Below, piece after piece: positions 1-31,428 of a stretch of DNA of 64,000 nucleotides. Position 1 is the stretch's first letter, and every line of letters begins with the position of its first letter. A program made the position numbers and the translations under genes. The stretch comes from Motiliproteus sp. (GTDB lineage: Bacteria > Pseudomonadota > Gammaproteobacteria > Pseudomonadales > Balneatricaceae). Location: contig JBALTG010000001.1 of the NCBI GenBank assembly GCA_036964625.1, positions 25,379 through 89,378 of the forward strand, read 5' to 3'. The notes under the pieces were generated by a model, which saw nothing but the letters and a program-made list of their open reading frames with translations, did not search any database and was not told the origin of the DNA.

Positions 1-191
1 ATGAGCGTTGGGAAGCGCAGGTTAGCCTTCAGGCTCTGCCGCGTGATGCGAGCCCCTGTCGTCAACGTCGTCGCTGCCAGATCACTGGTCGGCCGCACGG
101 TGTTTATCGTAAATTCGGGTTATCCCGAATTAAGCTTCGTGAAGCTGCCATGCGCGGTGATGTACCAGGCTTGAAAAAAGCTAGTTGGTAA
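1..191 (+). CDS. rpsN: 30S ribosomal protein S14, 3' partial (5' end outside window)
   Basis: Frame 3 reads ...[41 protein letters not shown] and ends at TAA 189-191. This is the canonical S14 C-terminus, directly upstream of rpsH. Confidence 0.9.
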
Positions 192-246
192 GCGTCGATT
201 CCAATTCCTGGAATCGCATGGCTGCACAATAGTGAGGACTCATTAA

Positions 247-639
247 ATGAGCATGCAAGACACACTTGCGGATATGCTGACGCGTATTCGTAACGGTTTG
301 ATGGCTGAGAAAGTCACCGTGTCCATGCCTGCATCTACACAGAAAAAGGCGGTTGCCCAGGTTCTGTTAGATGAAGGTTATATCACGGGTTTTAGTATTG
401 AAGGCGATGTAAAGCCAACGCTGAGCGTCGATCTTAAGTATTTCGAAGGCAAGCCCGTAATCGAGACAATCGATCGCGTAAGCCGCCCCTCTCTGCGTAT
501 CTATAAGGCCGCTAACGAGCTGCCAAAAGTACGTGATGGGCTGGGTATTGCCATTATTTCAACCTCTAAAGGTGTCATGACCGATCGTGCAGCCCGTGCT
601 GCAAACGTCGGTGGTGAAGTCATCTGCACCGTATTCTAG
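247..639 (+). CDS. rpsH: 30S ribosomal protein S8
   Basis: 130 aa, [17 protein letters not shown]... is a typical S8 N-terminus. The position fits spc operon order. Confidence 0.97.
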
Positions 640-1555: not shown

Positions 1556-2056
1556 ATGGCAAATCACGATCAGAAAGATGGCGACCTGCAAGAAAAGCTA
1601 GTACAGGTCAACCGCGTCGCCAAGGTGGTTAAAGGGGGTCGTGTATTCGGCTTCACCGCCCTGACTGTTGTCGGCGACGGAAATGGTAAGGTCGGCTTCG
1701 GTCGTGGCAAGGCGCGTGAAGTGCCGGTTGCGATCCAGAAGGCGATGGAGCAAGCGCGTCGTAACATGATTACGGTCGAGCTTAATGGTGGCACTCTGCA
1801 GTACGCGGTCAAGGCTCGCCATGGCGCGTCTAAGATCTACATGCAGCCTGCTTCTGAAGGTACGGGTGTTATCGCGGGTGGTGCAATGCGTGCGGTACTG
1901 GAATTGGCTGGCGTGCATAACGTACTGGCTAAGACCTACGGCTCAACCAACCCCGTTAACGTTGTTCGCGCTACTGTGAATGGTCTGAAAGCGATGAGTT
2001 CGCCTGATGCGATTGCAGCTAAGCGTGGCAAAACTGTAGAAGAGATTCTGGGGTAA
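1556..2056 (+). CDS. rpsE: 30S ribosomal protein S5
   Basis: 166 aa. [22 protein letters not shown] is the S5 dsRBD signature. Confidence 0.97.
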
Positions 2057-2062
2057 TCTGCG

Positions 2063-2245
2063 ATGACTAAGACAATCAAAGTGACGCAGACTCGTAGCTC
2101 TATCGGTATCCTGCCTAAGCACAAATTGTGCCTTAAGGGTTTGGGTCTACGCCGTATCGGGCATGTAGTCGAAGTTGAAGACACACCTTCAGTTCGTGGA
2201 ATGGTTAACAAAGTTAACTATCTCATTAGCGTCGAAGGCGAATAG
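2063..2245 (+). CDS. rpmD: 50S ribosomal protein L30
   Basis: 60 aa, [15 protein letters not shown]... is L30-like. Confidence 0.95.
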
Positions 2246-2259
2246 TGGAGAGGCATGTC

Positions 2260-2694
2260 ATGCGTCTGAATACACTGAGCCCAGCTGCTGGTTCCAAGCA
2301 TGCGCCTAAGCGCGTAGGCCGTGGTATCGGTAGTGGATTGGGTAAGACCGCGGGTCGCGGTCACAAGGGACAGAAGTCTCGCTCCGGTGGGTCTGTTAAG
2401 CCAGGTTTTGAAGGCGGCCAGATGCCATTGCAGCGTCGTCTGCCTAAGTTTGGCTTTACCTCTCGTAAAGCGCAGTACAATGCCGAAATTCGCTTGAGTG
2501 AATTGGCACTGATTAGCGCTGATGTGATCGATCTGGTAGCCCTGGAAGCGGCTAACATCATCGGTCATAAAATCAAGGTAGCGAAAGTTATCCTGTCAGG
2601 CAAGATCACCAAGGCCGTTACGGTCAAGGGGCTGAAGGTCACCAAGGGTGCCCGTGCAGCGATCGAAGCCGCCGGCGGAAAGGTCGAGGAATAG
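2260..2694 (+). CDS. rplO: 50S ribosomal protein L15
   Basis: The track ORF starts at 2245. The ATG at 2260 gives [13 protein letters not shown], the conserved L15 N-terminus. Confidence 0.95.
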
Positions 2695-4023
2695 ATGGCT
2701 AAGCAAGGTAGTAAGTCCCCCTCCGGAGTTCAAAGCGGCCTGGGCGAGCTTAAAGCGCGTTTGTGGTTTGTCTTTCTAGCCATTGTGGTTTACCGCATTG
2801 GGGCACATATTCCCGTTCCGGGAATCAACCCTGATCGCCTTGCTGCCATGTTCGAACAAAACCAAGGTACTATTCTGAGCTTGTTTAACATGTTCTCGGG
2901 TGGTGCTTTGGAACGTATGAGTATCCTGGCGTTGGGCATCATGCCTTACATATCCGCCTCGATCATCATGCAACTGCTGACCGTTGTCAGCCCTCAGCTA
3001 GCACAGCTCAAGAAAGAGGGTGAAGCAGGTCGACGAAAGATAAGCCAATACACCCGCTACGGTACTGTCATTTTGGCAACCGTTCAGTCGTTAGGTATGG
3101 CGGTAGGTCTCGCGGGGCAGGGCATTGCCTTTAGCGCAGACCTAAGCTTCTACTTCGTCGCTGTTGTAACTCTTGTTTCTGGTGCCGTGTTTCTGATGTG
3201 GCTCGGTGAGCAAATTACCGAGAGAGGTATAGGTAACGGTATTTCACTGTTGATCTTTGCTGGAATCGTCGCAGGTCTGCCCGGTGCAATCGGCCAGTCT
3301 TTCGAAGCGTCCCGTCAAGGTGATCTGAATATCCTGGCACTGTTAACTATCGCTATTATGGCGGTTGCGACAGTGGCGTTTGTAGTGTTTATGGAGCGCG
3401 GCCAACGTCGCATCACCATCAACTACGCCAAGCGTCAGCAGGGTCGGAAAGTGTTTGCCGCCCAAACCAGCCATCTGCCGCTGAAAGTGAATATGGCCGG
3501 GGTTATCCCGCCGATCTTTGCTTCCAGTATTCTGTTGTTTCCGGCTTCGGTCGGGCAGTGGTTCGGGCAGAGTGAAGGTATGGATTGGTTGCAGGATCTT
3601 GCACTGGCGCTTTCTCCGGGTCAGCCGCTATATATCCTGTTATTTGCCGCAGCTGTGATTTTCTTCTGTTACTTCTACACCGCGATTGTTTTCAATCCCA
3701 AGGATGTAGCGGATAACCTGAAGAAGTCAGGCGCCTTTATTCCCGGTATTCGTCCCGGTGATCAATCGGCTCGTTACATCGATCAGGTGCTGTCGCGTCT
3801 GACACTCTTTGGTGCTTTATATATCACCGGTGTGTCGTTGATGCCTCAGTTTTTGGTTGTTGCTTGGAACGTGCCGTTTTACTTCGGTGGAACATCGTTA
3901 CTGATCGTTGTAGTTGTAGTCATGGATTTCATGGCCCAGGTACAGTCGCATCTGATGTCTCATCAGTATGAATCACTGATGAAAAAATCCAATCTCAAAG
4001 GTGGCAGCGGTCTCGTTCGCTAA
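2695..4023 (+). CDS. secY: preprotein translocase subunit SecY
   Basis: 442 aa polytopic membrane protein. SecY-like sequence ([11 protein letters not shown]) in spc operon position. Confidence 0.97.
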
Positions 4024-4052
4024 CGAGTCCTTGGACCTATTTGGAGTAGATC

Positions 4053-4169
4053 ATGAAAGTACGTGCATCTGTAAAAAAGATTTGCCGTAACTGCAAGATT
4101 GTACGTCGTAACGGAGCCGTTCGCGTCATCTGCAAAACTGAACCGCGCCATAAGCAGCGTCAGGGTTAA
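4053..4169 (+). CDS. rpmJ: 50S ribosomal protein L36
   Basis: Not in the ORF track because it is too short. My own translation gives [38 protein letters not shown], which is L36 with its CxxC...C...H zinc ribbon. Confidence 0.95.
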
Positions 4170-4315
4170 TAACCCCGAGGTGCTTTCGTACGAAGGCCAG
4201 AAACAGTGGTTGATAAATAAACGATCAATCATTATAATCTTGCGCCTCTCGTTGAATGGTTAACGTAGCGTGCTGTGAACCAACAAAATTCACAGCCGAA
4301 CACGGAGTAAATTGA

Positions 4316-4672
4316 ATGGCCCGTATAGCTGGCGTCAATATTCCAGACAATAAGCATGCGGTGATCTCCCTGACTTATATCTATGGGATCGGCCGTACTA
4401 CTGCACAGTCGCTGTGCGACACAGTGGGCTTGGCGACCGATGTAAAAATCGGAGACCTGTCTGAAGAACAACTGGATGGCCTGCGCGCCGAAATCACCAA
4501 GCTCAGTGTTGAGGGTGATCTCCGCCGCGAGGTAAACATGAATATCAAGCGTCTTATGGACCTTGGCTGTTACCGTGGTATTCGCCACCGTCGCAGTCTG
4601 CCGGTTCGTGGTCAGCGCACTAAGACCAATGCGCGTACCCGTAAGGGACCACGTAAGCCGATCCGTAAGTAG
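4316..4672 (+). CDS. rpsM: 30S ribosomal protein S13
   Basis: 118 aa, [13 protein letters not shown] is the S13 N-terminus. First gene of the alpha operon. Confidence 0.97.
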
Positions 4673-4696
4673 TGCTGGCGATAGGAATAAACCGAC

Positions 4697-5089
4697 ATGG
4701 CTAAGCCAAGTTCGCGCGCACCGCGCAAGAAAATCAAAAAGCAGGTTGTTGATGGGTTAGCTCACATCCACGCCTCTTTTAACAACACCATTGTGACCAT
4801 TACCGATCGTCAAGGTAACACTCTGAGCTGGGCTACCTCTGGTGGTTCTGGGTTCCGTGGTTCGCGTAAGTCCACTCCGTTCGCTGCCCAGGTTGCAGCT
4901 GAGCGAGCTGGTCAAGCGGCTCAGGAGTATGGTCTGAAGAATCTCGACGTGTTCGTGAAGGGCCCAGGCCCAGGTCGTGAATCCGCAGTTCGTGCATTGA
5001 ACAATGTGGGTTACAAAATCACCAACATCACCGACGTGACGCCTATCCCGCATAATGGATGTCGTCCGCCGAAGAAGCGTCGCGTTTAA
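4697..5089 (+). CDS. rpsK: 30S ribosomal protein S11
   Basis: 130 aa. [18 protein letters not shown] is an S11 signature. Confidence 0.97.
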
Positions 5090-5104
5090 TCAGGAGACGG
5101 TAAA

Positions 5105-5725
5105 ATGGCTCGATATACTGGACCAACATGTAAGCTGTCTCGCCGCGAAGGTACGGACCTGTTCCTTAAGAGCGGCGTACGTGCACTAGATTCAAAGTGC
5201 AAGGCAGAAACTCCTCCGGGAGTCCACGGAGCGCGTCGTAGTCGTCTTTCTGACTACGGTCTGCAGTTACGTGAAAAGCAAAAAGTTCGTCGTATCTACG
5301 GCATTCTGGAGCGTCAGTTCCGCAGCTACTACAAAGAAGCTGCTCGCCTAAAGGGCGCAACCGGTGAGAACTTGTTGCAGCTGCTTGAAGGCAGATTGGA
5401 TAACGTGGTTTATCGCATGGGATTTGGTGCAACTCGTGCTGAATCTCGTCAGATCGTTTCTCACAAGTCGATTCTGGTTAATGGCAAGACGGTCAATGTA
5501 CCTTCTTACCAGGTAGTTGCCGGCGACATCGTCTCTGTGCGTGAAAAGGCTAAGACTCAGCTGCGGATTAAAAACGCACTGGAGCTTGCTTCTCAGCGTA
5601 CTGTGATCGAGTGGGTTGATGTTGATAACGCTAAAATGGAAGGCACCTTTAAGGCAGCCCCTGAGCGTAGCGAGCTATCCGCCGATATCAACGAACATCT
5701 GATCGTTGAACTGTACTCTAAGTAA
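5105..5725 (+). CDS. rpsD: 30S ribosomal protein S4
   Basis: 206 aa, [16 protein letters not shown] is the S4 N-terminus. Confidence 0.97.
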
Positions 5726-5744
5726 TCAATGCTAGGTGGAAATA

Positions 5745-6746
5745 ATGCAGGCTTCTGTAAACGAACTTCTTAGCCCTAGCCGGATCGAAGTTGAGGAGAT
5801 CTCGAGCACTCGTGCCCGTGTTTCCCTCGAGCCGCTAGAGCGTGGTTTCGGCCACACGCTGGGTAATGCGCTGCGACGGATTCTTCTGTCCTCCATGCCT
5901 GGTTGCGCAATCTCCGATGTGGAGATTGATGGCGTACAGCACGAGTACAGCTCTATTGAGGGTGTACAGGAGGATGTCATTGAGATCCTGCTGAACCTCA
6001 AGGGCGTTTCTGTAGCCATGCATAATGGTGAAGAAGCGCTGCTGACACTGACAAAGCAGGGCCCCTGTGTTGTCACCGCGGCTGATATAGAGCTGAATCA
6101 GGATGTTGAACTGGCTAACCCCGATCACGTGATCGCTCACCTGAGTGATAAAGCCAAGCTGTCTATGCAGCTGCGCGTTACCCGTGGTCGTGGCTATGTG
6201 CCTGCCGACGGTCGTGATAGCTCCGATGAAGAGAGTCGCCCTATTGGTCGTCTACTTCTGGATGCTAGTTACAGCCCGGTACGTCGCGTATCTTACGTGG
6301 TCGAGAGTGCTCGGGTTGAGCAGCGTACCGACCTTGATAAGCTGGTGATCGACCTTGAAACTACCGGTGCCATCGATCCGGAAGAAGCGATCCGTCGCTC
6401 TGCAACTATTCTGCAGCAGCAACTGGTTGCCTTCGTTGATCTGGAAGGTGAGTCTGGTGTTGATGAGGCTGAGCCCGAGCCGGAAATCGATCCGATTCTG
6501 CTGCGCCCGGTTGATGATCTAGAGCTGACCGTTCGTTCTGCGAACTGTCTGAAAGCCGAGAACCTCTACTACATTGGTGATTTGATCCAGCGTACTGAAG
6601 TAGAGTTGCTTAAGACCCCGAACCTGGGTAAGAAGTCCCTGACTGAAATCAAGGATGTTCTTGCTTCGAAAGGTCTTTCTCTTGGTATGCGTCTGGAAAA
6701 TTGGCCGCCTGCGAGCCTGAGAAACGACGACAAGATGGCCTCCTAA
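5745..6746 (+). CDS. rpoA: DNA-directed RNA polymerase alpha subunit
   Basis: The track ORF begins at GTG 5736. The ATG at 5745 (MQASVNELL) follows an AGGTGGA Shine-Dalgarno and matches the E. coli-type MQGSVTEFL start. Confidence 0.96.
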
Positions 6747-6790
6747 GGCTGTCTTGACTGAACCACGTCTAGTTTTGTAAGGAATTAAAC

Positions 6791-7186
6791 ATGCGCCATC
6801 GTAAAAGTGGGCGTCAACTAAATCGCAATAGCTCGCATCGTAAAGCGATGTTCAAAAACATGGCTATAAGCCTGTTTGAGCACGAGCTGATTAAGACGAC
6901 ACTGCCCAAAGCTAAAGAGCTACGTCGTGTTGCTGAGCCTTTGATCACACTGGCTAAGCAAGACTCAGTAGCAAATCGCCGTTTGGCATTTGCCCGTACT
7001 CGCTGTGATGCGACTGTCGGCAAACTGTTCACCGAACTAGGACCGCGTTATGCTAGCCGTCCTGGTGGTTACATTCGTATTCTCAAGTGCGGTTTCCGCT
7101 CGGGTGACAATGCGCCTATGGCCTACGTTGAATTGGTTGACCGTGTAGTTACGGGCGATGCAGTCGAAGATACGTCTGAAGACTAA
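6791..7186 (+). CDS. rplQ: 50S ribosomal protein L17
   Basis: 131 aa, [20 protein letters not shown] is the L17 N-terminus. Last gene of the alpha operon. Confidence 0.97.
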
Positions 7187-7206
7187 ACGTCGCTGTTAAG
7201 ATAAAA

Positions 7207-7234
7207 AGCCCGGCTTATGCTGGGCTTTTTTTTG
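7207..7234 (+). terminator. rho-independent terminator of the alpha operon
   Basis: AGCCCGGC-TTAT-GCTGGGCT stem (one G-U pair) followed by a T8 run. Confidence 0.85.
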
Positions 7235-7561
7235 CGTGTTGAAAACAGTTGTCGTGGTTGATGGGTGTAGGTAAGTCTCGACCTGATGTTGATGTTTGTG
7301 TTGTCACGGACACCTTAAGGGTTCCTTCTTACCTACAAAGCTACGCCATGAAGCAGCGGATCTATTTTCGTGAGCCGCACTAATCAAGCCATAGCGCTTA
7401 AGTCTTTCTGTTTACTCGCCCCTCCTTCAAGAAAAATCAGCCATGATGCCGCCGATCTATTCTCGCGTGCCCGTAAGTCCATCGCTGTGATGGCTGGAAA
7501 TCATGGCTAATCAGGAAATTTGTTACCTGAACAATTGAGGATTGGATTTGTAAACCGTCCT

Positions 7562-10390
<2,829 letters not shown>

Positions 10391-10587
10391 ACAGGCCTCT
10401 GGCACAACGTGACTGATTAAATAAAGCAGTCCCTAGTATATAAGATCAGGACCTCAAGAAGTGGTTGATAAAACATTAACCGGGCAGAGTCTATCTGCGA
10501 AGAGTTATGGTATTCTAAATTGCTAATAGGTTTGTTGTCGGCGCGGCGCGGACTTAGATTGGATCATCATGAAAGAGTAGAGAATCG

Positions 10588-11256
10588 ATGGCACGTGGAG
10601 TGAACAAAGTAATCTTGATCGGTAATCTTGGTCAGGATCCTGAAGTGCGTTACATGCCTAATGGTAATGCAGTTACCAATGTGACACTGGCTACCTCTGA
10701 GAGCTGGAAGGACCGCGAGAGTGGTCAGCAGCAGGAGCGCACCGAATGGCATCGGGTGGTGTTTTTCGGAAAACTAGCCGAAATCGCCGGCCAATACTTG
10801 CGTAAAGGGTCAAAGATATACGTTGATGGCGCTTTGCGGACCAATAAGTGGCAGGGGCAGGATGGCCAGGATCGTTACACCACCGAGATTGTCGTCGGTA
10901 ATGGAGGTTCGATGCAGATGCTTGACTCGCGTCCCGGAGATCAAGGCGGCTACCAGCAGCAGGGCCAGCAAGGTCAGCAGCAGGGTCAGCAACAGCAGCC
11001 CCGCCCTCAGCAGTCTCAGCAACAGCCTCAGCAGCAACAACAGCAGCAAGCGCCTGCGCAGAATTATTCGCAGCAGTCTGGTCAGCAGTCTGGTCAGCAG
11101 TCTGGTCAGCAGTCTGGTCAGCAGGGCGGTTACGGTGCCCGGCAGCCATCCGCGCCACCCAAGAACCGGCCACAGAATCAGCCCCAGAATCAACCACAAA
11201 GCCCGCCACAACCCCCGGCGGGTATGGATGATTTTGACGACGACATTCCGTTTTAG
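10588..11256 (+). CDS. ssb: single-stranded DNA-binding protein with an unusually long Q/P-rich linker
   Basis: OB-fold N-terminus [26 protein letters not shown] and the canonical acidic tip DDFDDDIPF. Divergent from uvrA, as in many gammaproteobacteria. Confidence 0.96.
11071..11130 (+). repeat. in-frame 12-nt tandem repeat (CAGCAGTCTGGT x4 plus a degenerate fifth) inside ssb
   Basis: Direct reading of the sequence. It encodes QQSG x4 followed by QQGG. Confidence 0.9.
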
Positions 11257-11273
11257 GTTTAGGGACCGTTTCT

Positions 11274-12149
11274 TTGTTTGAGCTACCCGCATTATTGGTC
11301 GTCGGTGCTCAAGGCCAGCTCGGTTATGAGGTGGAGGTCTTGGCTCGGGAGCAGGGCTTTAGCTTGACCGCGCTGGATCATGCTCAGCTCGATATTCTCG
11401 ATAGCGCTGCGGTGGTGGCTGCTTTAGCTGAGTACAAGCCTAAGTTTGTCATTAATGCAGCAGCCGTTCTCAATACCCAGGAGCAGCAACTGGCGGCTTA
11501 TGCGGCTAATACCCGTGGAGCGGCTATTCTGGCTGAAAATTGTCGCGCTGCTGGCTGTGCGATGATCCACCTGTCTTGTGCCGAGGTGTTTGCGGGGGAT
11601 CTGAATGAGCCGTACGCAGAGGATCAGAATCCCGCTCCGCTTACCCTGTATGCGCAGAGCAAGGCGCGGGGAGAGGAGCTGGTTCGAGCGGCGTTACCGC
11701 AGCATATTATCTTGCGTACCGGGTGGCTGTTTGGGGTCCGAAGTGGCAGCTTTGTTCGCGAGTTGCTGGAGCAGGCTCGGCAACAGGAGCAGGTCTGCAT
11801 TGCGGATGGATTGGTCGGTGATCCGACCCCCGCTGCGGATGTGGCCAGGGTTATTCTGGCGATGATCAAGCAACTGGACAGTGGCGCTGAGTGCTGGGGT
11901 ACGTATCATTATTCCGCCTCTGAAAGCGTCAGCTGGTTCGGTTTTGCCGAGGCTATTATTGCTACAGCCAGGCAGTATGCCGATATTTCGTTGGAGCGAT
12001 TGCTAACACGGCCTCAGGCACAGTTGCCGATGCGTCAGCGTCCCGTCAATAGCCGCCTGGATTGCGATAAAATTTTGTGCACGTTCGGTATCCATCAGCG
12101 CGCGTGGCGTTCGGGGCTGATGCAGGTCATTCGCAATTATTACAGCTAG
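11274..12149 (+). CDS. RmlD-like SDR (dTDP-4-dehydrorhamnose reductase family), orphan
   Basis: 291 aa. GAQGQLG Rossmann motif, a YAQSK catalytic Y-x3-K, and an ILRTGWLFG block resembling E. coli RfbD. TTG start, so the start is uncertain. Confidence 0.7.
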   Translation: MFELPALLVVGAQGQLGYEVEVLAREQGFSLTALDHAQLDILDSAAVVAALAEYKPKFVINAAAVLNTQEQQLAAYAANTRGAAILAENCRAAGCAMIHLSCAEVFAGDLNEPYAEDQNPAPLTLYAQSKARGEELVRAALPQHIILRTGWLFGVRSGSFVRELLEQARQQEQVCIADGLVGDPTPAADVARVILAMIKQLDSGAECWGTYHYSASESVSWFGFAEAIIATARQYADISLERLLTRPQAQLPMRQRPVNSRLDCDKILCTFGIHQRAWRSGLMQVIRNYYS

Positions 12150-12384
12150 TTCGTGACAGCGGTTGTTATAGCAGTCTCGAATAGCTGGGACAGAAAGGCA
12201 CAGTGAGCTAGATGCGCGCAGTGGGTTAAATTGCCGCACTGACCCAGGCGTCTGTTGTATTTTCCGCACGACTGCATGATTGCAGGCGATAGAGCAGCGC
12301 AGCAGCGGTTGTCGAATAGATCCGTGTTAACGTTGACAGCCGCCTAGGCTGCAGTGAAGTAACTCTCAGAATCCGGTGGTGTTG

Positions 12385-13380
12385 ATGTCAAATCCTTCCC
12401 TGATTGATCGCTTTGGTCGTCACGTCGATTACATCCGAATTTCGGTCACCGATCGCTGCGATTTCCGTTGTGTTTATTGCATGGCTGAGGAGATGAGCTT
12501 TGTGCCTCGTCCTCAGGTATTAAGTCTTGAAGAGATCGAGCTGACCGCGCAGGCGTTCGTAGCGCTGGGGGTTAAAAAAATCCGCTTGACCGGTGGTGAG
12601 CCGTTGGTGCGACGCGGCATCGTATCGCTGTGTCAGCGGTTGTCGGCCCTGGAAGGCCTGGATGAATTAGTGATGACCACCAATGGCTCGCAGCTGCCGA
12701 AGTTGGCCAGTGCTCTCAGTGGTGCAGGGGTTAAACGCCTCAATATCAGTTTGGACTCGCTGCGTGCTGAGCGATTCGCCGCGCTGACCCGTACCGGTCG
12801 ACTCGATCAGGTGGTGGCCGGGATTGACGCCGCCTGCGCTGCAGGATTCAAGCGGATTAAGCTCAATGCGGTGATCATGAAGGGCCGTAACGACGACGAG
12901 GTGCTTGATCTGGTTGAGTTTGCGCGTGAGCGCAATCTGGATATCAGCTTTATCGAAGAGATGCCGCTAGGGGTTATTCGTGAGCATGATCGCGAAGAGT
13001 CCTATTGCTCTAGCGAGGAGGTGCGCGATTTGATTCAGCAGCGTTATGCGCTGCTCGATTCCACGCTGGTGACTGCGGGGCCGTCTCGCTACTATCAGAT
13101 GGCTGACAGCGCTAGCCGGATCGGTTTTATCTCCCCCCACAGTCATAATTTTTGTCATGCCTGTAATCGAGTGCGTTTGACTGCAGAGGGGCGGTTGTTG
13201 CTCTGTCTGGGCAACGAGCATTCGTTCGATCTTCGTGCGCTGCTCCGCGCGCCTGGGTTTACCCCGGCTCAGCTAGAGCCCGCCATCCGCAAGGCCATGG
13301 ATCTAAAACCAGAGAAGCATGAGTTCGACCTCAGTGGCGAGCCTCAAATCTTACGTTTTATGAACATGACCGGTGGCTGA
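12385..13380 (+). CDS. moaA: GTP 3',8-cyclase (molybdenum cofactor biosynthesis protein A)
   Basis: [28 protein letters not shown] is a radical-SAM CxxxCxxC motif, with a C-terminal GG. ATG at 12385 chosen over upstream GTG/TTG codons. Confidence 0.93.
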
Positions 13381-28703: not shown

Positions 28704-29363
28704 ATGAGCGGGACCGCAGAGCAAAAACCGCGTTGGTTTCGAGTCTGCCTGATACTGCTGCTCTACGCCGGACTTTTTTCGCTAGGCCACTGGGGCGGCG
28801 GCTGGATAACAGAATGGATCAACCTCGATCTCAGCGGCGACGCCTCATCTCCCAATTGGCAGATGATGATTGCGGGGATTGTCCTGTATGTGCTGTTGAT
28901 GGCGATTCCGTTCGTGCCCGGCATGGAGATAAGCATCGCTCTGCTCGCGGTGTTCGGTCCGGCTGCTGCGATACCGGTCTACATCGCGACGCTGGTTGCC
29001 TTGACCTTATCTTGCTTGATTGGGCAACGACTGCCCATCGTGGTACTCACCAGACTGTTTGCCGCGCTCGGCCTGCAACAAGCCAAGACACTGGTCCTGA
29101 GGCTGGAACCCTTAAACGCGCCACAACGACTCGAGATCCTGACCGAGCAGACCCCCAAGCGGCTCTTGGCGCTGCTGTTACAGCACCGTTACATCGCCGT
29201 CATCGTCGCCCTCAATACTCCGGGCAACGCCCTTATCGGTGGTGGCGGCGGCATCGCGCTGCTGGCGGGTATCAGCGGCCTATTCTCGTTACCGCGCTTT
29301 GTCATCGCCGTTGCGTTGGCAGCTGCGCCAGTCCCTCTCGCGATTCTGTTGATCAGCGGCTAA
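28704..29363 (+). CDS. polytopic membrane protein, unknown function (possibly DedA/VTT-like)
   Basis: 219 aa with 5-6 hydrophobic helices and a PFVPGMEIS motif reminiscent of the TVP38/DedA family. The family assignment is not certain. Confidence 0.65.
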   Translation: MSGTAEQKPRWFRVCLILLLYAGLFSLGHWGGGWITEWINLDLSGDASSPNWQMMIAGIVLYVLLMAIPFVPGMEISIALLAVFGPAAAIPVYIATLVALTLSCLIGQRLPIVVLTRLFAALGLQQAKTLVLRLEPLNAPQRLEILTEQTPKRLLALLLQHRYIAVIVALNTPGNALIGGGGGIALLAGISGLFSLPRFVIAVALAAAPVPLAILLISG

Positions 29364-29426
29364 TAAATCTGACCCCGACAGGTCCGGAGAATAGCGCTAG
29401 AGCCGCTGGCACGGAGGAATTTCAGA

Positions 29427-29626
29427 CAAAGAAAAGCCGATCACCTCAGCTCCAGAACGCGCGGTTCAAGAGTGCGATAATCGGCTCGGCTCCAGTTATT
29501 ATTGTTGTTAGGGAGCGGTGTTCGCAGAGCGCCATTATTATTGTTATTGCAGCGACTCTAACGGAGTTTTCGAACTTTTTTGTTATTCTTATTTTTTGTT
29601 ATTCTTATTTTTTGTTCTTATTACTG
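29427..29626 (-). ncRNA. candidate sigma54-dependent A-rich sRNA, copy A (about 200 nt)
   Basis: Bounded by the predicted TSS about 11 nt downstream of the -12 GC and by a compound hairpin (AGCCGAU...AUCGGCU) plus UUUUCUUUG. Contains three AANAANAA tracts. The 5' and 3' ends are predictions. Confidence 0.6.
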
Positions 29627-29634
29627 AACTATAT

Positions 29635-29650
29635 AGCAGAGAGCGTGCCA
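29635..29650 (-). promoter_or_regulatory. sigma54 -24/-12 promoter element, copy A
   Basis: Minus strand reads TGGCACGCTCTCTGCT against the consensus TGGCACG-N4-TTGCW, with GG and GC at the exact canonical spacing. Confidence 0.7.
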
Positions 29651-29746
29651 GAAATCGCAACATGCTGTTTTTGATAGGCTAAGAATATTTTCAGCCTAAT
29701 GCCACCAGATAAGTGTCCGCTAAGCGCTACCTATACACCCACATCG

Positions 29747-29777
29747 GGTAACACTTAATGGGTAGCAAGGTAACACT
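29747..29777 (-). promoter_or_regulatory. candidate enhancer (UAS) for a bacterial enhancer-binding protein, copy A
   Basis: Direct repeat of GGTAACACT (minus strand AGTGTTACC) with a 22 bp period, centred about 110 bp upstream of the -24 element. Confidence 0.5.
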
Positions 29778-29920
29778 TCGGCACAGTCTGCTGTTCTTGC
29801 GCGCACAACGACCTCCCAGCAAGCGACGCCTGACAGGCGATCTACCGCGCTGGACCCACAACACAGGATCTATCGGGCCGAAGACGAGCATCAATGCAGC
29901 TGACGCAGGGGGATTTCAGA

Positions 29921-30106
29921 CAAAGAAAAGCCGATCACCCCAGCTCCAGAACGCGCGTTTCAAGAGTGCGATAATCGGCTCGGCTCCAGTTATTATTGTT
30001 GTTTGGGAGCGGTGTTTCGCAGAGCGCCATTATTATTGTTATTGCAGCGGCTGTTGCGGAGTTTTCGAACTTTTTGTTATTCTTATTTTTTTTGTTCTTA
30101 TTACTA
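29921..30106 (-). ncRNA. candidate sigma54-dependent A-rich sRNA, copy B (about 186 nt)
   Basis: Same architecture as copy A, but without the extra 16-nt A-rich module. Confidence 0.6.
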
Positions 30107-30114
30107 AGCTATAT

Positions 30115-30130
30115 AGCAGAGAGCGTGCCA
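30115..30130 (-). promoter_or_regulatory. sigma54 -24/-12 promoter element, copy B
   Basis: Minus strand TTGGCACGCTCTCTGCTATATAG. Confidence 0.7.
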
Positions 30131-30227
30131 ATAAACGCAACATACTGTTTTTACAGGGTGTCGGCATGCTTTCAGGCTAATGCCTCCAGATGATAATCCG
30201 CTAAGCGCTACCTATATACCCACATCG

Positions 30228-30258
30228 GGTAACACTTGATGGGTAGCAAGGTAACACT
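30228..30258 (-). promoter_or_regulatory. candidate enhancer (UAS), copy B
   Basis: GGTAACACT at 30228 and 30250, a 22 bp period. Confidence 0.5.
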
Positions 30259-30387
30259 TCGGCACAGGCCGCTTTGTTGCGCCCACAGCAACCTCCCAGC
30301 AAGCGACCCACAGCACTAGACCTGCGGCACAGGGCTTATCAGGCCTGGAGACGAGTACTAACATAACGGACGCAGAGGAATTTCAGA

Positions 30388-30574
30388 CAAAGAAAAGCCG
30401 ATCACCCCAGCTCAAGAACGCGAGGTTCCAGAGTGCGATAATCGGCTCGGCTCCAGTTATTATTATTGTTTGGGAGCGGTGTTTCGCAGAGCGCCATTAT
30501 TATTGTTATTGCAGCGCCTATTGCGGAGTTTTCGAACTTTTTTGTTATTCTTATTTTTTTTGTTCTTATTGCTA
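30388..30574 (-). ncRNA. candidate sigma54-dependent A-rich sRNA, copy C (about 187 nt)
   Basis: Same architecture. This is the copy closest to the upstream exonuclease gene. Confidence 0.6.
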
Positions 30575-30582
30575 ATACATAT

Positions 30583-30598
30583 AGCAGAGAGCGTGCCA
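30583..30598 (-). promoter_or_regulatory. sigma54 -24/-12 promoter element, copy C
   Basis: Minus strand TTGGCACGCTCTCTGCTATATGT. Confidence 0.7.
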
Positions 30599-30694
30599 AT
30601 AAATGCAACGCGCTGTTTTTAAAGCGATAGCTGTATTTTAGGTATAAAACCATCTGATAAGCGCCCGCTAAGCGCTACCTATACACCCACATCG

Positions 30695-30725
30695 GGTAAC
30701 ACTTAATGGGTAGCAAGGTAACACT
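30695..30725 (-). promoter_or_regulatory. candidate enhancer (UAS), copy C
   Basis: GGTAACACT at 30695 and 30717, a 22 bp period, about 45 bp downstream of the exonuclease stop codon. Confidence 0.5.
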
Positions 30726-30768
30726 TTGATACGGCCCGCACTCTTGCGCGCACACTGCTCCGCCGCCG

Positions 30769-31428
30769 TTATGCCGACGCCTCGGGCTCCAATACAGGCT
30801 CCGGCTCCTGATCCAGGATCGGCAGCTGGGAATCGGCTTTGTTCATCGCTTCGAGCACCTTGAGCGCCGCGTAGGCATCATTCGCGGCGTACAGCAGCTG
30901 ATTGCTTTTCAATTCAGGCAGCGCCCAATTAGAGGTCGATACGTGCTTGGACTTTTGAAAACGCTGTTTCAACACGACCGCTATCGCCGCCTTGACCCCG
31001 ATCTCCTTGCGATAGCCTTCGGCACGAAATAGCAGATTCAGATCCAGCAGAGCCCTGGGTTTGATAGCGAGCTTTCGCAGCAGGTGACCCCGATCCGATT
31101 TCAGCCCGAAACCCACCTTGACCAGCGTCGGCAATTGCAGCAATTCTGCGACCAGGGCATGACAGGCGTCATGCTGTAGCTGAAAAATATAGGCCCTCTT
31201 CAGAGTCGTTAGCTGAATCACATGCGGGCCATCGGAGATCTGGCCGGGCCTGAAACAGGGCTTTGACTCGGTATCAAAGCCAACGTAACGACAGCGCGAA
31301 AGATCCGCTGCTGCCGCAACAAACTCGGCCTGGGTGGAGGGAACAATGATCTGCTCCAGAGTCAGGCCCGTAAACGGGGGCAGTAAGGCGATATCGGCTT
31401 TTGAGGGCGGTTCAAGCTTTTTGGTCAT
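30769..31428 (-). CDS. DEDDy-type 3'-5' exonuclease domain protein (RNase D/WRN-exo-like)
   Basis: 219 aa. ExoI motif GFDTES and ExoIII motif YAANDAYAA (Y-x3-D). Confidence 0.8.
   Translation of the reverse strand: MTKKLEPPSKADIALLPPFTGLTLEQIIVPSTQAEFVAAAADLSRCRYVGFDTESKPCFRPGQISDGPHVIQLTTLKRAYIFQLQHDACHALVAELLQLPTLVKVGFGLKSDRGHLLRKLAIKPRALLDLNLLFRAEGYRKEIGVKAAIAVVLKQRFQKSKHVSTSNWALPELKSNQLLYAANDAYAALKVLEAMNKADSQLPILDQEPEPVLEPEASA

Follow-up and report, generated by a model that had tools for sequence, protein, structure and literature searches.

A triplicated array of predicted sigma-54-dependent small RNAs in Motiliproteus, candidate Hfq decoys of the CrcZ type

The two-component system CbrAB and the CrcZ-type RNAs are described in reviews as unique to the Pseudomonadaceae (PMC8871633, PMC6296734). 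An A-rich tandem array in a MAG of marine Motiliproteus, a host outside that family, raises the question of whether small RNAs of this kind also occur elsewhere. CrcZ itself is 407 nt long and carries six A-rich stretches, and its sequestration of Hfq relieves translational repression (PMC4063720, PMC8395346). Binding of Hfq to CrcZ needs an intact distal face, whose code consists of an A site, an R site and a free N site; the first 151 nt of CrcZ contain three A-rich stretches, and with Hfq three shifted bands were obtained, interpreted by the authors as one hexamer for each stretch (PMC4063720). In the window, i.e. the whole stretch of 64,000 nucleotides of Motiliproteus DNA analysed here, a first-pass annotation had pointed to three long A-rich tracts per transcript, a sigma-54 promoter and a TGTTAC-type enhancer, and had proposed an Hfq/Crc sponge that follows the logic of the CbrAB-CrcZ module. 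The array is examined below with respect to its layout, its promoters, its homologues and the function that can be derived from them.

Layout of the array and predicted fold of its RNAs

The array occupies the minus strand from 29414 to 30726 and consists of 2.7 copies of a tandem unit of ~467 nt (TRF period 467). Each unit comprises an upstream activating sequence of the TGTTAC type, a sigma-54 promoter and a predicted RNA of 184-198 nt that ends in a terminator (Table 1). The range given originally, 29988-30105, holds the tract-bearing part of copy B, but the RNA of this copy runs on to ~29922 and the feature as a whole is the complete array; the description of the RNA as shorter than CrcZ and triplicated was borne out. 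An alignment of the three units showed hardly any variation in the upstream activating sequence, the promoter and the RNA blocks, in contrast to the diverged spacer that separates the enhancer from the promoter. As no minus-strand gene follows the array and the next gene is convergent, the copies represent free-standing sRNA genes and not leaders.

The exonuclease encoded on one flank of the array shares 100% identity with an NCBI Motiliproteus 3'-5' exonuclease. With this gene as the synteny marker, the sRNA was found to be kept at one of eight loci (L001 only, see below), and the link between the array and the exonuclease gene is consequently not stable. None of cbrA, cbrB, crc and hfq was found within the 64-kb window; the array lies off the cbrB-pcnB locus and is thus placed outside CrcZ sensu stricto. 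In two other Motiliproteus MAGs (L003 and L004), two-component systems with sigma-54-dependent response regulators are located 4-6 kb from the exonuclease gene; one of the kinases is of the SBP_bac_3 type, the other is of the dCache_1 type and adjoins dctP, and neither has the architecture of CbrA.

Table 1. Coordinates of the array, its neighbours and the related loci on other contigs
Sequence	Feature	Position	Strand	Basis
Window	copy C upstream activating sequence, TGTTACC-N15-TGTTACC-N15-GGTAGCG (= TGTTAC-N16-TGTTAC-N17-GTAGCG)	30673..30725	-	
Window	copy C sigma-54 promoter TGGCACGCTCTCTGCT (GG-N10-GC)	30583..30598	-	consensus match
Window	copy C sRNA of ~185 nt, comprising 5' AAN tail, two AAN-loop hairpins, terminator hairpin and U tract	30389..30573	-	R1 226 bits
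Window	copy B upstream activating sequence, architecture as in copy C	30206..30258	-	motif match
Window	copy B sigma-54 promoter	30115..30130	-	TGGCACGCTCTCTGCT match
Window	copy B sRNA, ~184 nt (the copy described in the first pass)	29922..30105	-	fold; R1 224 bits
Window	copy B tract 1, 11 consecutive AAN triplets, single-stranded 5' tail	30071..30102	-	motif and predicted fold
Window	copy B hairpin 1, loop = tract 2 AAUAACAAUAAUAAU at 30029-30043	30018..30058	-	predicted fold, pair counts
Window	copy B hairpin 2, GCUCC/GGAGC stem, loop = tract 3 AACAACAAUAAUAAC at 29989-30003	29983..30010	-	predicted fold, pair counts
Window	copy B long terminator hairpin (GCCGAU...AUCGGC base), then UUUUCUUU	29922..29981	-	predicted fold
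Window	copy A upstream activating sequence	29725..29777	-	motif match
Window	copy A sigma-54 promoter	29635..29650	-	TGGCACGCTCTCTGCT match
Window	copy A sRNA, ~198 nt, 5' tail longer through 16-nt duplication	29428..29625	-	TRF 29576-29616; predicted fold
Window	membrane-protein gene, one flank of the array	28704-29363	+	gene call
Window	3'-5' exonuclease gene, other flank of the array	30769-31428	-	gene call
L003, Motiliproteus MAG	two-component system near exonuclease gene	10711-12633		
L004, Motiliproteus MAG	two-component system near exonuclease gene	8677-12055		
L079, JGI contig Ga0181596_10005728	enhancer, promoter and A-rich RNA	1736-2186		
L085, Thalassolituus oleivorans CP017810.1	dksA-gluQ-cbrX-cbrA-cbrB-[sRNAs]-pcnB-folK, complete	1951-9374		
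L086, Oceanobacter mangrovi	dksA-gluQ-cbrX-cbrA-cbrB-[sRNAs]-pcnB-folK, complete	2083-9623		
L087, Bacterioplanes sanyensis CP022530.1	dksA-gluQ-cbrX-cbrA-cbrB-[sRNAs]-pcnB-folK, complete	1893-8944		
L076	(A)GTGTTACC array	7890-8060		
L080	(A)GTGTTACC array	11000-11190		
L077	(A)GTGTTACC array	170-340		
L081	(A)GTGTTACC array	2070-2252		
L082	(A)GTGTTACC array	380-530		

The multiple A-rich motifs are the most conspicuous feature of the array. The pattern (AAN)4AA has 27 matches in the window, each of them on the minus strand and within one of the three RNA copies, compared with 0.13 expected from shuffles, among which the largest value was 3; given this excess, the AAN tracts must be regarded as real. 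The strings that had been reported for copy B were all recovered on the minus strand, AGUAAUAAGAACAAAAAAAAUAAGAAUAACAAAAAG at the predicted 5' end (30105 downwards) as well as GCAAUAACAAUAAUAAUGG and CCAAACAACAAUAAUAACUGG, the last enclosed by GCUCC and GGAGC. Each RNA has three tracts, provided by a single-stranded 5' AAN tail (at least 11 AAN triplets, 33-46 nt across the copies) and by two GC-stem hairpins with (AAN)5 loops, AAUAACAAUAAUAAU in hairpin 1 and AACAACAAUAAUAAC in hairpin 2. A terminator hairpin of ~55 nt followed by UUUUCUUU was found in all three copies. According to the predicted folds, 85-93% of the tract nucleotides are unpaired, versus 30-41% for the rest of each RNA. The 5-bp GCUCC/GGAGC stem, which had been suggested to present the third tract as a loop, is present in both the MFE and the centroid folds of the copies and covaries in L001; that the second tract is likewise held in a hairpin loop had been absent from the first-pass annotation.

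Two further details of individual copies may be recorded. In copy A, a perfect 16-nt tandem duplication (29576-29616, 2.6 copies, TTTTTTGTTATTCTTA on the plus strand) adds ~14 nt to the 5' AAN tail relative to copies B and C, and it seems that the decoy tail has grown by slippage. In copy B, an ORF of 30 codons (29942-30034, minus strand; MALCETPLPNNNNNWSRADYRTLETRVLELG) starts from an AUG in AAUAAUGGCG at the end of loop 1; it is very probably not coding, because L001 lacks the AUG (AAUAAAGGCC).

Promoters and upstream activating sequences

Both the sigma-54 promoter and the TGTTAC-type enhancer withstood a comparison with chance expectation. The promoter TGGCACGCTCTCTGCT, a consensus match of the GG-N10-GC type with the internal spacing TGGCA-N7-TGC, occurs exactly three times in the window versus 0.09 expected. 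The three units have the upstream block AAGTGTTACCTTGCTACCCATYAAGTGTTACCCGATGTGGGTRTATAGGTAGCGCTTAGCGG in common, and the pattern TGTTAC-N17-GTARCR is found three times (0.02 expected), solely at the three sRNA promoters. The published CbrB site, with its subsites F1, R1 and R2 (PMC6296734), reads TGTTAC-N12-14-GTAACA-N15-19-GTAACA (PMC8871633), as at CrcZ, whereas the arrangement in the window is TGTTAC-N16-TGTTAC-N17-GTARCG, with a degenerate reverse subsite (GTAGCG). The half-sites of the window therefore match those of CbrB, but the spacing is N17 as against the published N12-14. The arrangement TGTTAC-N17-GTAAC(R) is also present in the enhancers of L001, L079, sRNAs #2 and #3 of T. oleivorans and sRNA #2 of O. 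mangrovi, all of which are described below. In the window, in L079 and at T. oleivorans #2 and #3, the distance from the promoter-proximal TGTTAC to the TGGCA downstream is ~104 nt, the latter two having the enhancer TGTTAC-N17-GTAACA. Judged by sequence, this geometry would be a lineage variant of the CbrB site that is common to promoters beside true cbrB. Between enhancer and promoter, a good match to an IHF site, YAANNNNTTGATW, was seen in the promoters of the Thalassolituus group; none that is convincing was found at this place in the window.

The heptamer TGTTACC alone is far more frequent in the window (19 matches versus 3.7 expected), only six of them lying within the sRNA enhancers. 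The 13 others (e.g. 768, 1449, 4568, 4814, 7521, 8527, 19883, 22605, 38876, 48288, 52409, 61794, 62207) are outside the array, and 0 of these 13 is accompanied by a TGTTAC-N17-GTARCR partner or a TGGCAY-N6-TGCW promoter.

Arrays of TGTTAC-type sites were also encountered at loci other than sRNA genes. On several JGI metagenome contigs (Table 1), three to six direct (A)GTGTTACC repeats, often with a terminal inverted GGTAACAC, are located upstream of sigma-54-type promoters. One of these contigs, L080, is derived from a phage, with genes for a primase, a DnaB helicase, a DNA polymerase and CobT/CobS-like proteins; downstream of its promoter there are ~500 nt of GC-rich DNA in which neither an ORF was called nor an Rfam family matched. 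These phages may use a host sigma-54 activator that binds TGTTAC. Three occurrences of GTGTTACC at short distances were counted on at least 120 IMG/VR viral contigs; many of these matches have a 9-nt period, e.g. GTGTTACCA repeats, and are by appearance in-frame coding repeats. In a set of 80 IMG/VR contigs (L088-L167), a promoter-like GGCAY-N6-TGC site stands 66 or 106 nt downstream in nine and upstream in none. Neither the combined enhancer and promoter pattern nor the promoter and RNA pattern had a single match in the IMG/VR viral contigs.

Homologues and kinship with CrcZ

A single-copy homologue is located on the Motiliproteus-like contig L001, in syntenic position downstream of an exonuclease that is 77% identical to the one in the window. 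The upstream block is kept, with a better reverse subsite (GTAACG), the sigma-54 promoter reads TGGCATGCTAGCTGC, and the whole RNA architecture is retained; the stem of hairpin 2, GCUCU/AGAGC, represents a compensatory change with respect to GCUCC/GGAGC in the window. Between these two Motiliproteus-like species, which make up the strongest homologue set, the three tracts can be placed in register, and A positions have changed in 1 of 42 cases compared with 11 of 21 for N positions (Fisher p = 5.7e-6). Because the changes within AAN fall on N and almost never on A, the substitution pattern points to an Hfq distal-face motif, and not to a pairing seed, as the target of selection. The tract conservation that the first-pass reading demanded of homologous loci is seen in L001 as an AAN pattern with free N positions.

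A covariance model, R1 (not to be confused with the CbrB subsite), was built solely from the window copies and L001, which it scores with 217-226 bits and 187 bits, respectively. It gave a full-length match to sRNA #1 of Thalassolituus oleivorans (40.9 bits, E 6e-8) and weak matches in Oceanobacter mangrovi (23.6-27 bits) and Bacterioplanes sanyensis (20.5-22.4 bits). The window RNAs exhibit the traits by which the R1 family is delimited, i.e. a full-length match, the AAN hairpin-loop architecture and the terminator.

The complete genome of T. oleivorans has the gene order dksA, gluQ, a 60-aa ORF, a kinase of 976 aa, a sigma-54 response regulator of 469 aa, a gap of 1.5 kb and pcnB-folK-panBCD-pgi. 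Over its residues 1-592, the kinase matches PDB 10ED, the SLC5-STAC structure of Pseudomonas CbrXA (PMC13488458), with an E-value of 3e-207, and hence the locus can be addressed as a true cbrXAB. The 1.5-kb gap between cbrB and pcnB harbours three sigma-54 promoters in tandem, and an A-rich RNA with a terminator comes after each of them; sRNA #1 is the first of the three and thus resides at the crcZ locus. In O. mangrovi and B. sanyensis the corresponding gap is occupied by three and two tandem A-rich sRNAs, respectively. An R1 homologue between true cbrA-cbrB and pcnB, a shared enhancer architecture and tracts that evolve as AAN patterns are consistent with the CbrAB-CrcZ module logic proposed for the window.

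One more homologue, L079, was retrieved by a metagenome scan with the upstream sites and the promoter alone, the search pattern containing no RNA sequence. Enhancer and promoter are followed by an A-rich RNA of ~290 nt with five AAN tracts, directly upstream of pcnB-folK-panB-panC-pgi; PcnB places the contig in the Thalassolituus group, and the pcnB-folK-panBC side corresponds to the downstream synteny of crcZ in Pseudomonas (PMC8395346). Where cbrAB would be, L079 has an iron-type ABC transporter (FecCD permease and ATPase), so that the linkage of sRNA and pcnB can survive the loss or relocation of cbrAB. In a search with the CbrB protein, the best 120 matches all came from the Thalassolituus group, with no Motiliproteus among them.

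Across the predicted folds of all 13 RNAs, the unpaired share of the AAN tracts is 75-100%, and the internal tracts are mostly found in loops of 15-19 nt which are closed by GC-rich stems of unrelated sequence. A plain MAFFT alignment of the eight short RNAs brought the tracts into register but not the stems, and pairs were counted on a model-guided alignment instead (A5, ten sequences). There, 95.8% of the cells pair, versus 36-48% with the partner column slid, and compensatory changes are present at 25 of 34 pairs, although these counts lean towards the model structure because the alignment was fitted to that model.

How close, then, are the window RNAs to CrcZ? No Rfam family matched the window at the gathering threshold, and searches at E-value thresholds likewise produced no real match. 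The best local match of the Rfam CrcZ model (RF01675) reached 13.8 bits (E 0.45) against a threshold of 95 bits and covered an A-rich stretch only; the cbrB-linked RNAs of T. oleivorans also scored 13-14 bits with this model. The features that mark the class of CrcZ, CrcY and CrcX, a sigma-54 promoter and several unpaired A-rich motifs of the AANAANAA type, are nevertheless present in the window. Beyond these, the RNAs of Pseudomonas and Azotobacter share with those of the window the upstream TGTTAC/GTAAC half-sites, a terminator and redundant paralogues per genome. In Pseudomonas, CrcY and CrcX are located off the cbrB locus. With ~190 nt and three tracts, the window RNA differs from CrcZ (407 nt, six tracts), yet it resembles the 151-nt 5' part of CrcZ in size and number of sites. 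The three head-to-tail copies in the window lie off cbrB, and it is the homologues, not the window RNA, that are found at cbrB-pcnB beside true cbrXAB. The window RNA can in effect be viewed as a natural half-CrcZ in three copies.

Closer parallels are provided by the cbrB-linked sRNAs of the Oceanospirillaceae, which like those of the window combine GC stems and (AAN)4-5 loops with a sigma-54 promoter in tandem arrays of two to three; the terminator GCCGAU...AUCGGC-UUUU of T. oleivorans #1 and B. sanyensis #1 resembles that of the window. On the other hand, the Oceanospirillaceae arrays contain both a short form (~160-180 nt) and a long one (~270-290 nt, four to five tracts) between cbrB and pcnB, whereas the window has three near-identical short copies elsewhere, and the single-stranded 5' AAN tail of these copies is much longer. 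CsrB, RsmY and RsmZ also display a repeated protein-binding motif in hairpin loops, and they occur as redundant copies under the control of a two-component system. Their loops, however, carry GGA, address CsrA/RsmA and depend on GacA, while those of the window carry AAN (the sole GGA is in the 3' arm of a stem) behind a sigma-54 promoter of the CbrB type, and Hfq would be the target. No description of CrcZ-like RNAs in Oceanospirillales was found in the full-text literature searched, the coverage of which is incomplete.

Proposed function, alternatives and implications

It is very likely that the array consists of real sigma-54-dependent sRNA genes homologous to the cbrB-linked CrcZ-like RNAs, and the RNAs of the window probably act in the main as Hfq decoys in the manner of CrcZ. 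The three tandem genes on the minus strand would each be transcribed independently from their own sigma-54 promoter, with a CbrB-type enhancer-binding protein presumably bound to the TGTTAC/GTARC sites ~80-125 bp upstream. Each RNA would offer three sites to Hfq's distal face, the 5' (AAN)n tail and two (AAN)5 loops held by GC-rich stems, and the U tail of the terminator could touch the proximal face. Once the activator is switched on, which by analogy would happen when carbon or energy is limiting, the RNAs would build up and titrate Hfq, perhaps in complex with Crc, off A-rich ribosome-binding sites on mRNAs for catabolism and transport. Such titration would relieve translational repression as with CrcZ, CrcY and CrcX in Pseudomonas, and the capacity of the decoy would be increased by the presence of three genes, each with three sites. 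For the window RNAs, we infer the identity of the activator, the binding of Hfq, the role of Crc and the physiological signal.

The Hfq-dependent sRNAs of class II deserve the first consideration among the alternatives. In E. coli such RNAs combine an ARN-rich single-stranded region with a U-tailed Rho-independent terminator. The window RNAs share this anatomy with ChiX and MgrR, i.e. ARN/AAN distal-face motifs in a 5' region that is single-stranded and a U-tailed terminator, and they could accordingly be base-pairing sRNAs in which the tracts and the tail serve as an anchor only, a seed pairs with mRNAs, and titration of Hfq is incidental. Such motifs are also known from sRNA99 of A. baumannii, which has three of the AAN type and showed CrcZ-like behaviour in RIL-seq (PMC12802169). 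Candidates for a seed are the short linkers GUUCGAAAACUCCG and CUGCGAA, which are single-stranded, not A-rich and conserved between the window and L001. This conservation ends with the Motiliproteus pair, since none was detected in the Thalassolituus, Oceanobacter and Bacterioplanes homologues, and a cross-genus seed is not evident from this comparison. Nor is a seed evident in the tracts, where the substitutions at the N positions would break the pairing. Moreover, the tracts are far longer than those of ChiX, MgrR or sRNA99, and the promoter is of the sigma-54/CbrB type. A stoichiometric decoy better accommodates the three long tracts on each RNA, the presence of three genes and the homologues at the crcZ locus, and the base-pairing alternative is considered unlikely.

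A second alternative concerns the partners: a different enhancer-binding protein might respond to a different signal, nitrogen or another nutrient, and the A-rich loops might bind a protein other than Hfq, the likeness to CbrAB-CrcZ being convergent. It draws on the departure of TGTTAC-N17-GTARCR from the published N12-14 geometry (PMC8871633) and on the lack of a cbrB within the 64-kb window. In addition, GTGTTACC arrays ahead of sigma-54 promoters occur on phage contigs, too, so the cognate activator may have a wide distribution and is not necessarily CbrB. Against this, the N17 geometry is met directly downstream of true cbrA-cbrB in T. oleivorans and O. mangrovi, and the window RNA is homologous to the cbrB-linked T. 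oleivorans #1. As to the binding protein, AAN with a free N is the known code of the Hfq distal face (PMC4063720, PMC8395346). We regard this second alternative as improbable. The array might finally be an A-rich intergenic repeat without function, or what is left of a mobile element, as its tandem period and the lack of synteny in most relatives would allow, but this is scarcely credible in view of the near-invariant enhancer, promoter and transcribed part next to a diverged spacer, homologues with compensatory stem changes in four other taxa, and the absence of terminal inverted repeats and of a transposase at the array.

Returning to the decoy function, a broader and rather tentative scenario can be sketched. 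A circuit of CbrXAB, sigma-54 and decoy RNA could be ancestral to a wide range of marine Oceanospirillales/Pseudomonadales, with a GC stem and an (AAN)5 loop as a portable module that would accommodate one Hfq hexamer. Such modules might have been duplicated within RNAs (two to six) and as genes (arrays of two to three), and they might be able to leave cbrB, as in Motiliproteus. In lineages that lack Crc the RNA would be a pure Hfq decoy, and marine phages with GTGTTACC arrays before sigma-54 promoters may couple their early genes to the carbon-status signal of the host.

For practical purposes, these RNAs are missed by genome annotation, because they are invisible to the current Rfam CrcZ model. 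The short RNA with three sites would be a natural minimal version of CrcZ and as such suits structural and quantitative work on Hfq titration, while substitutions confined to the N positions provide a test for Hfq distal-face decoys that requires nothing but sequence. The claim of reviews that the system is restricted to the Pseudomonadaceae is contradicted by true cbrXAB with associated sRNAs in Thalassolituus, Oceanobacter and Bacterioplanes, and the RNAs of the window speak against it as well. This suggests that carbon control of the CbrAB/CrcZ type reaches beyond the pseudomonads, and catabolite control by Hfq decoys appears to run in marine heterotrophs of high abundance, among them oil degraders and a genus of diazotrophs with a global distribution.
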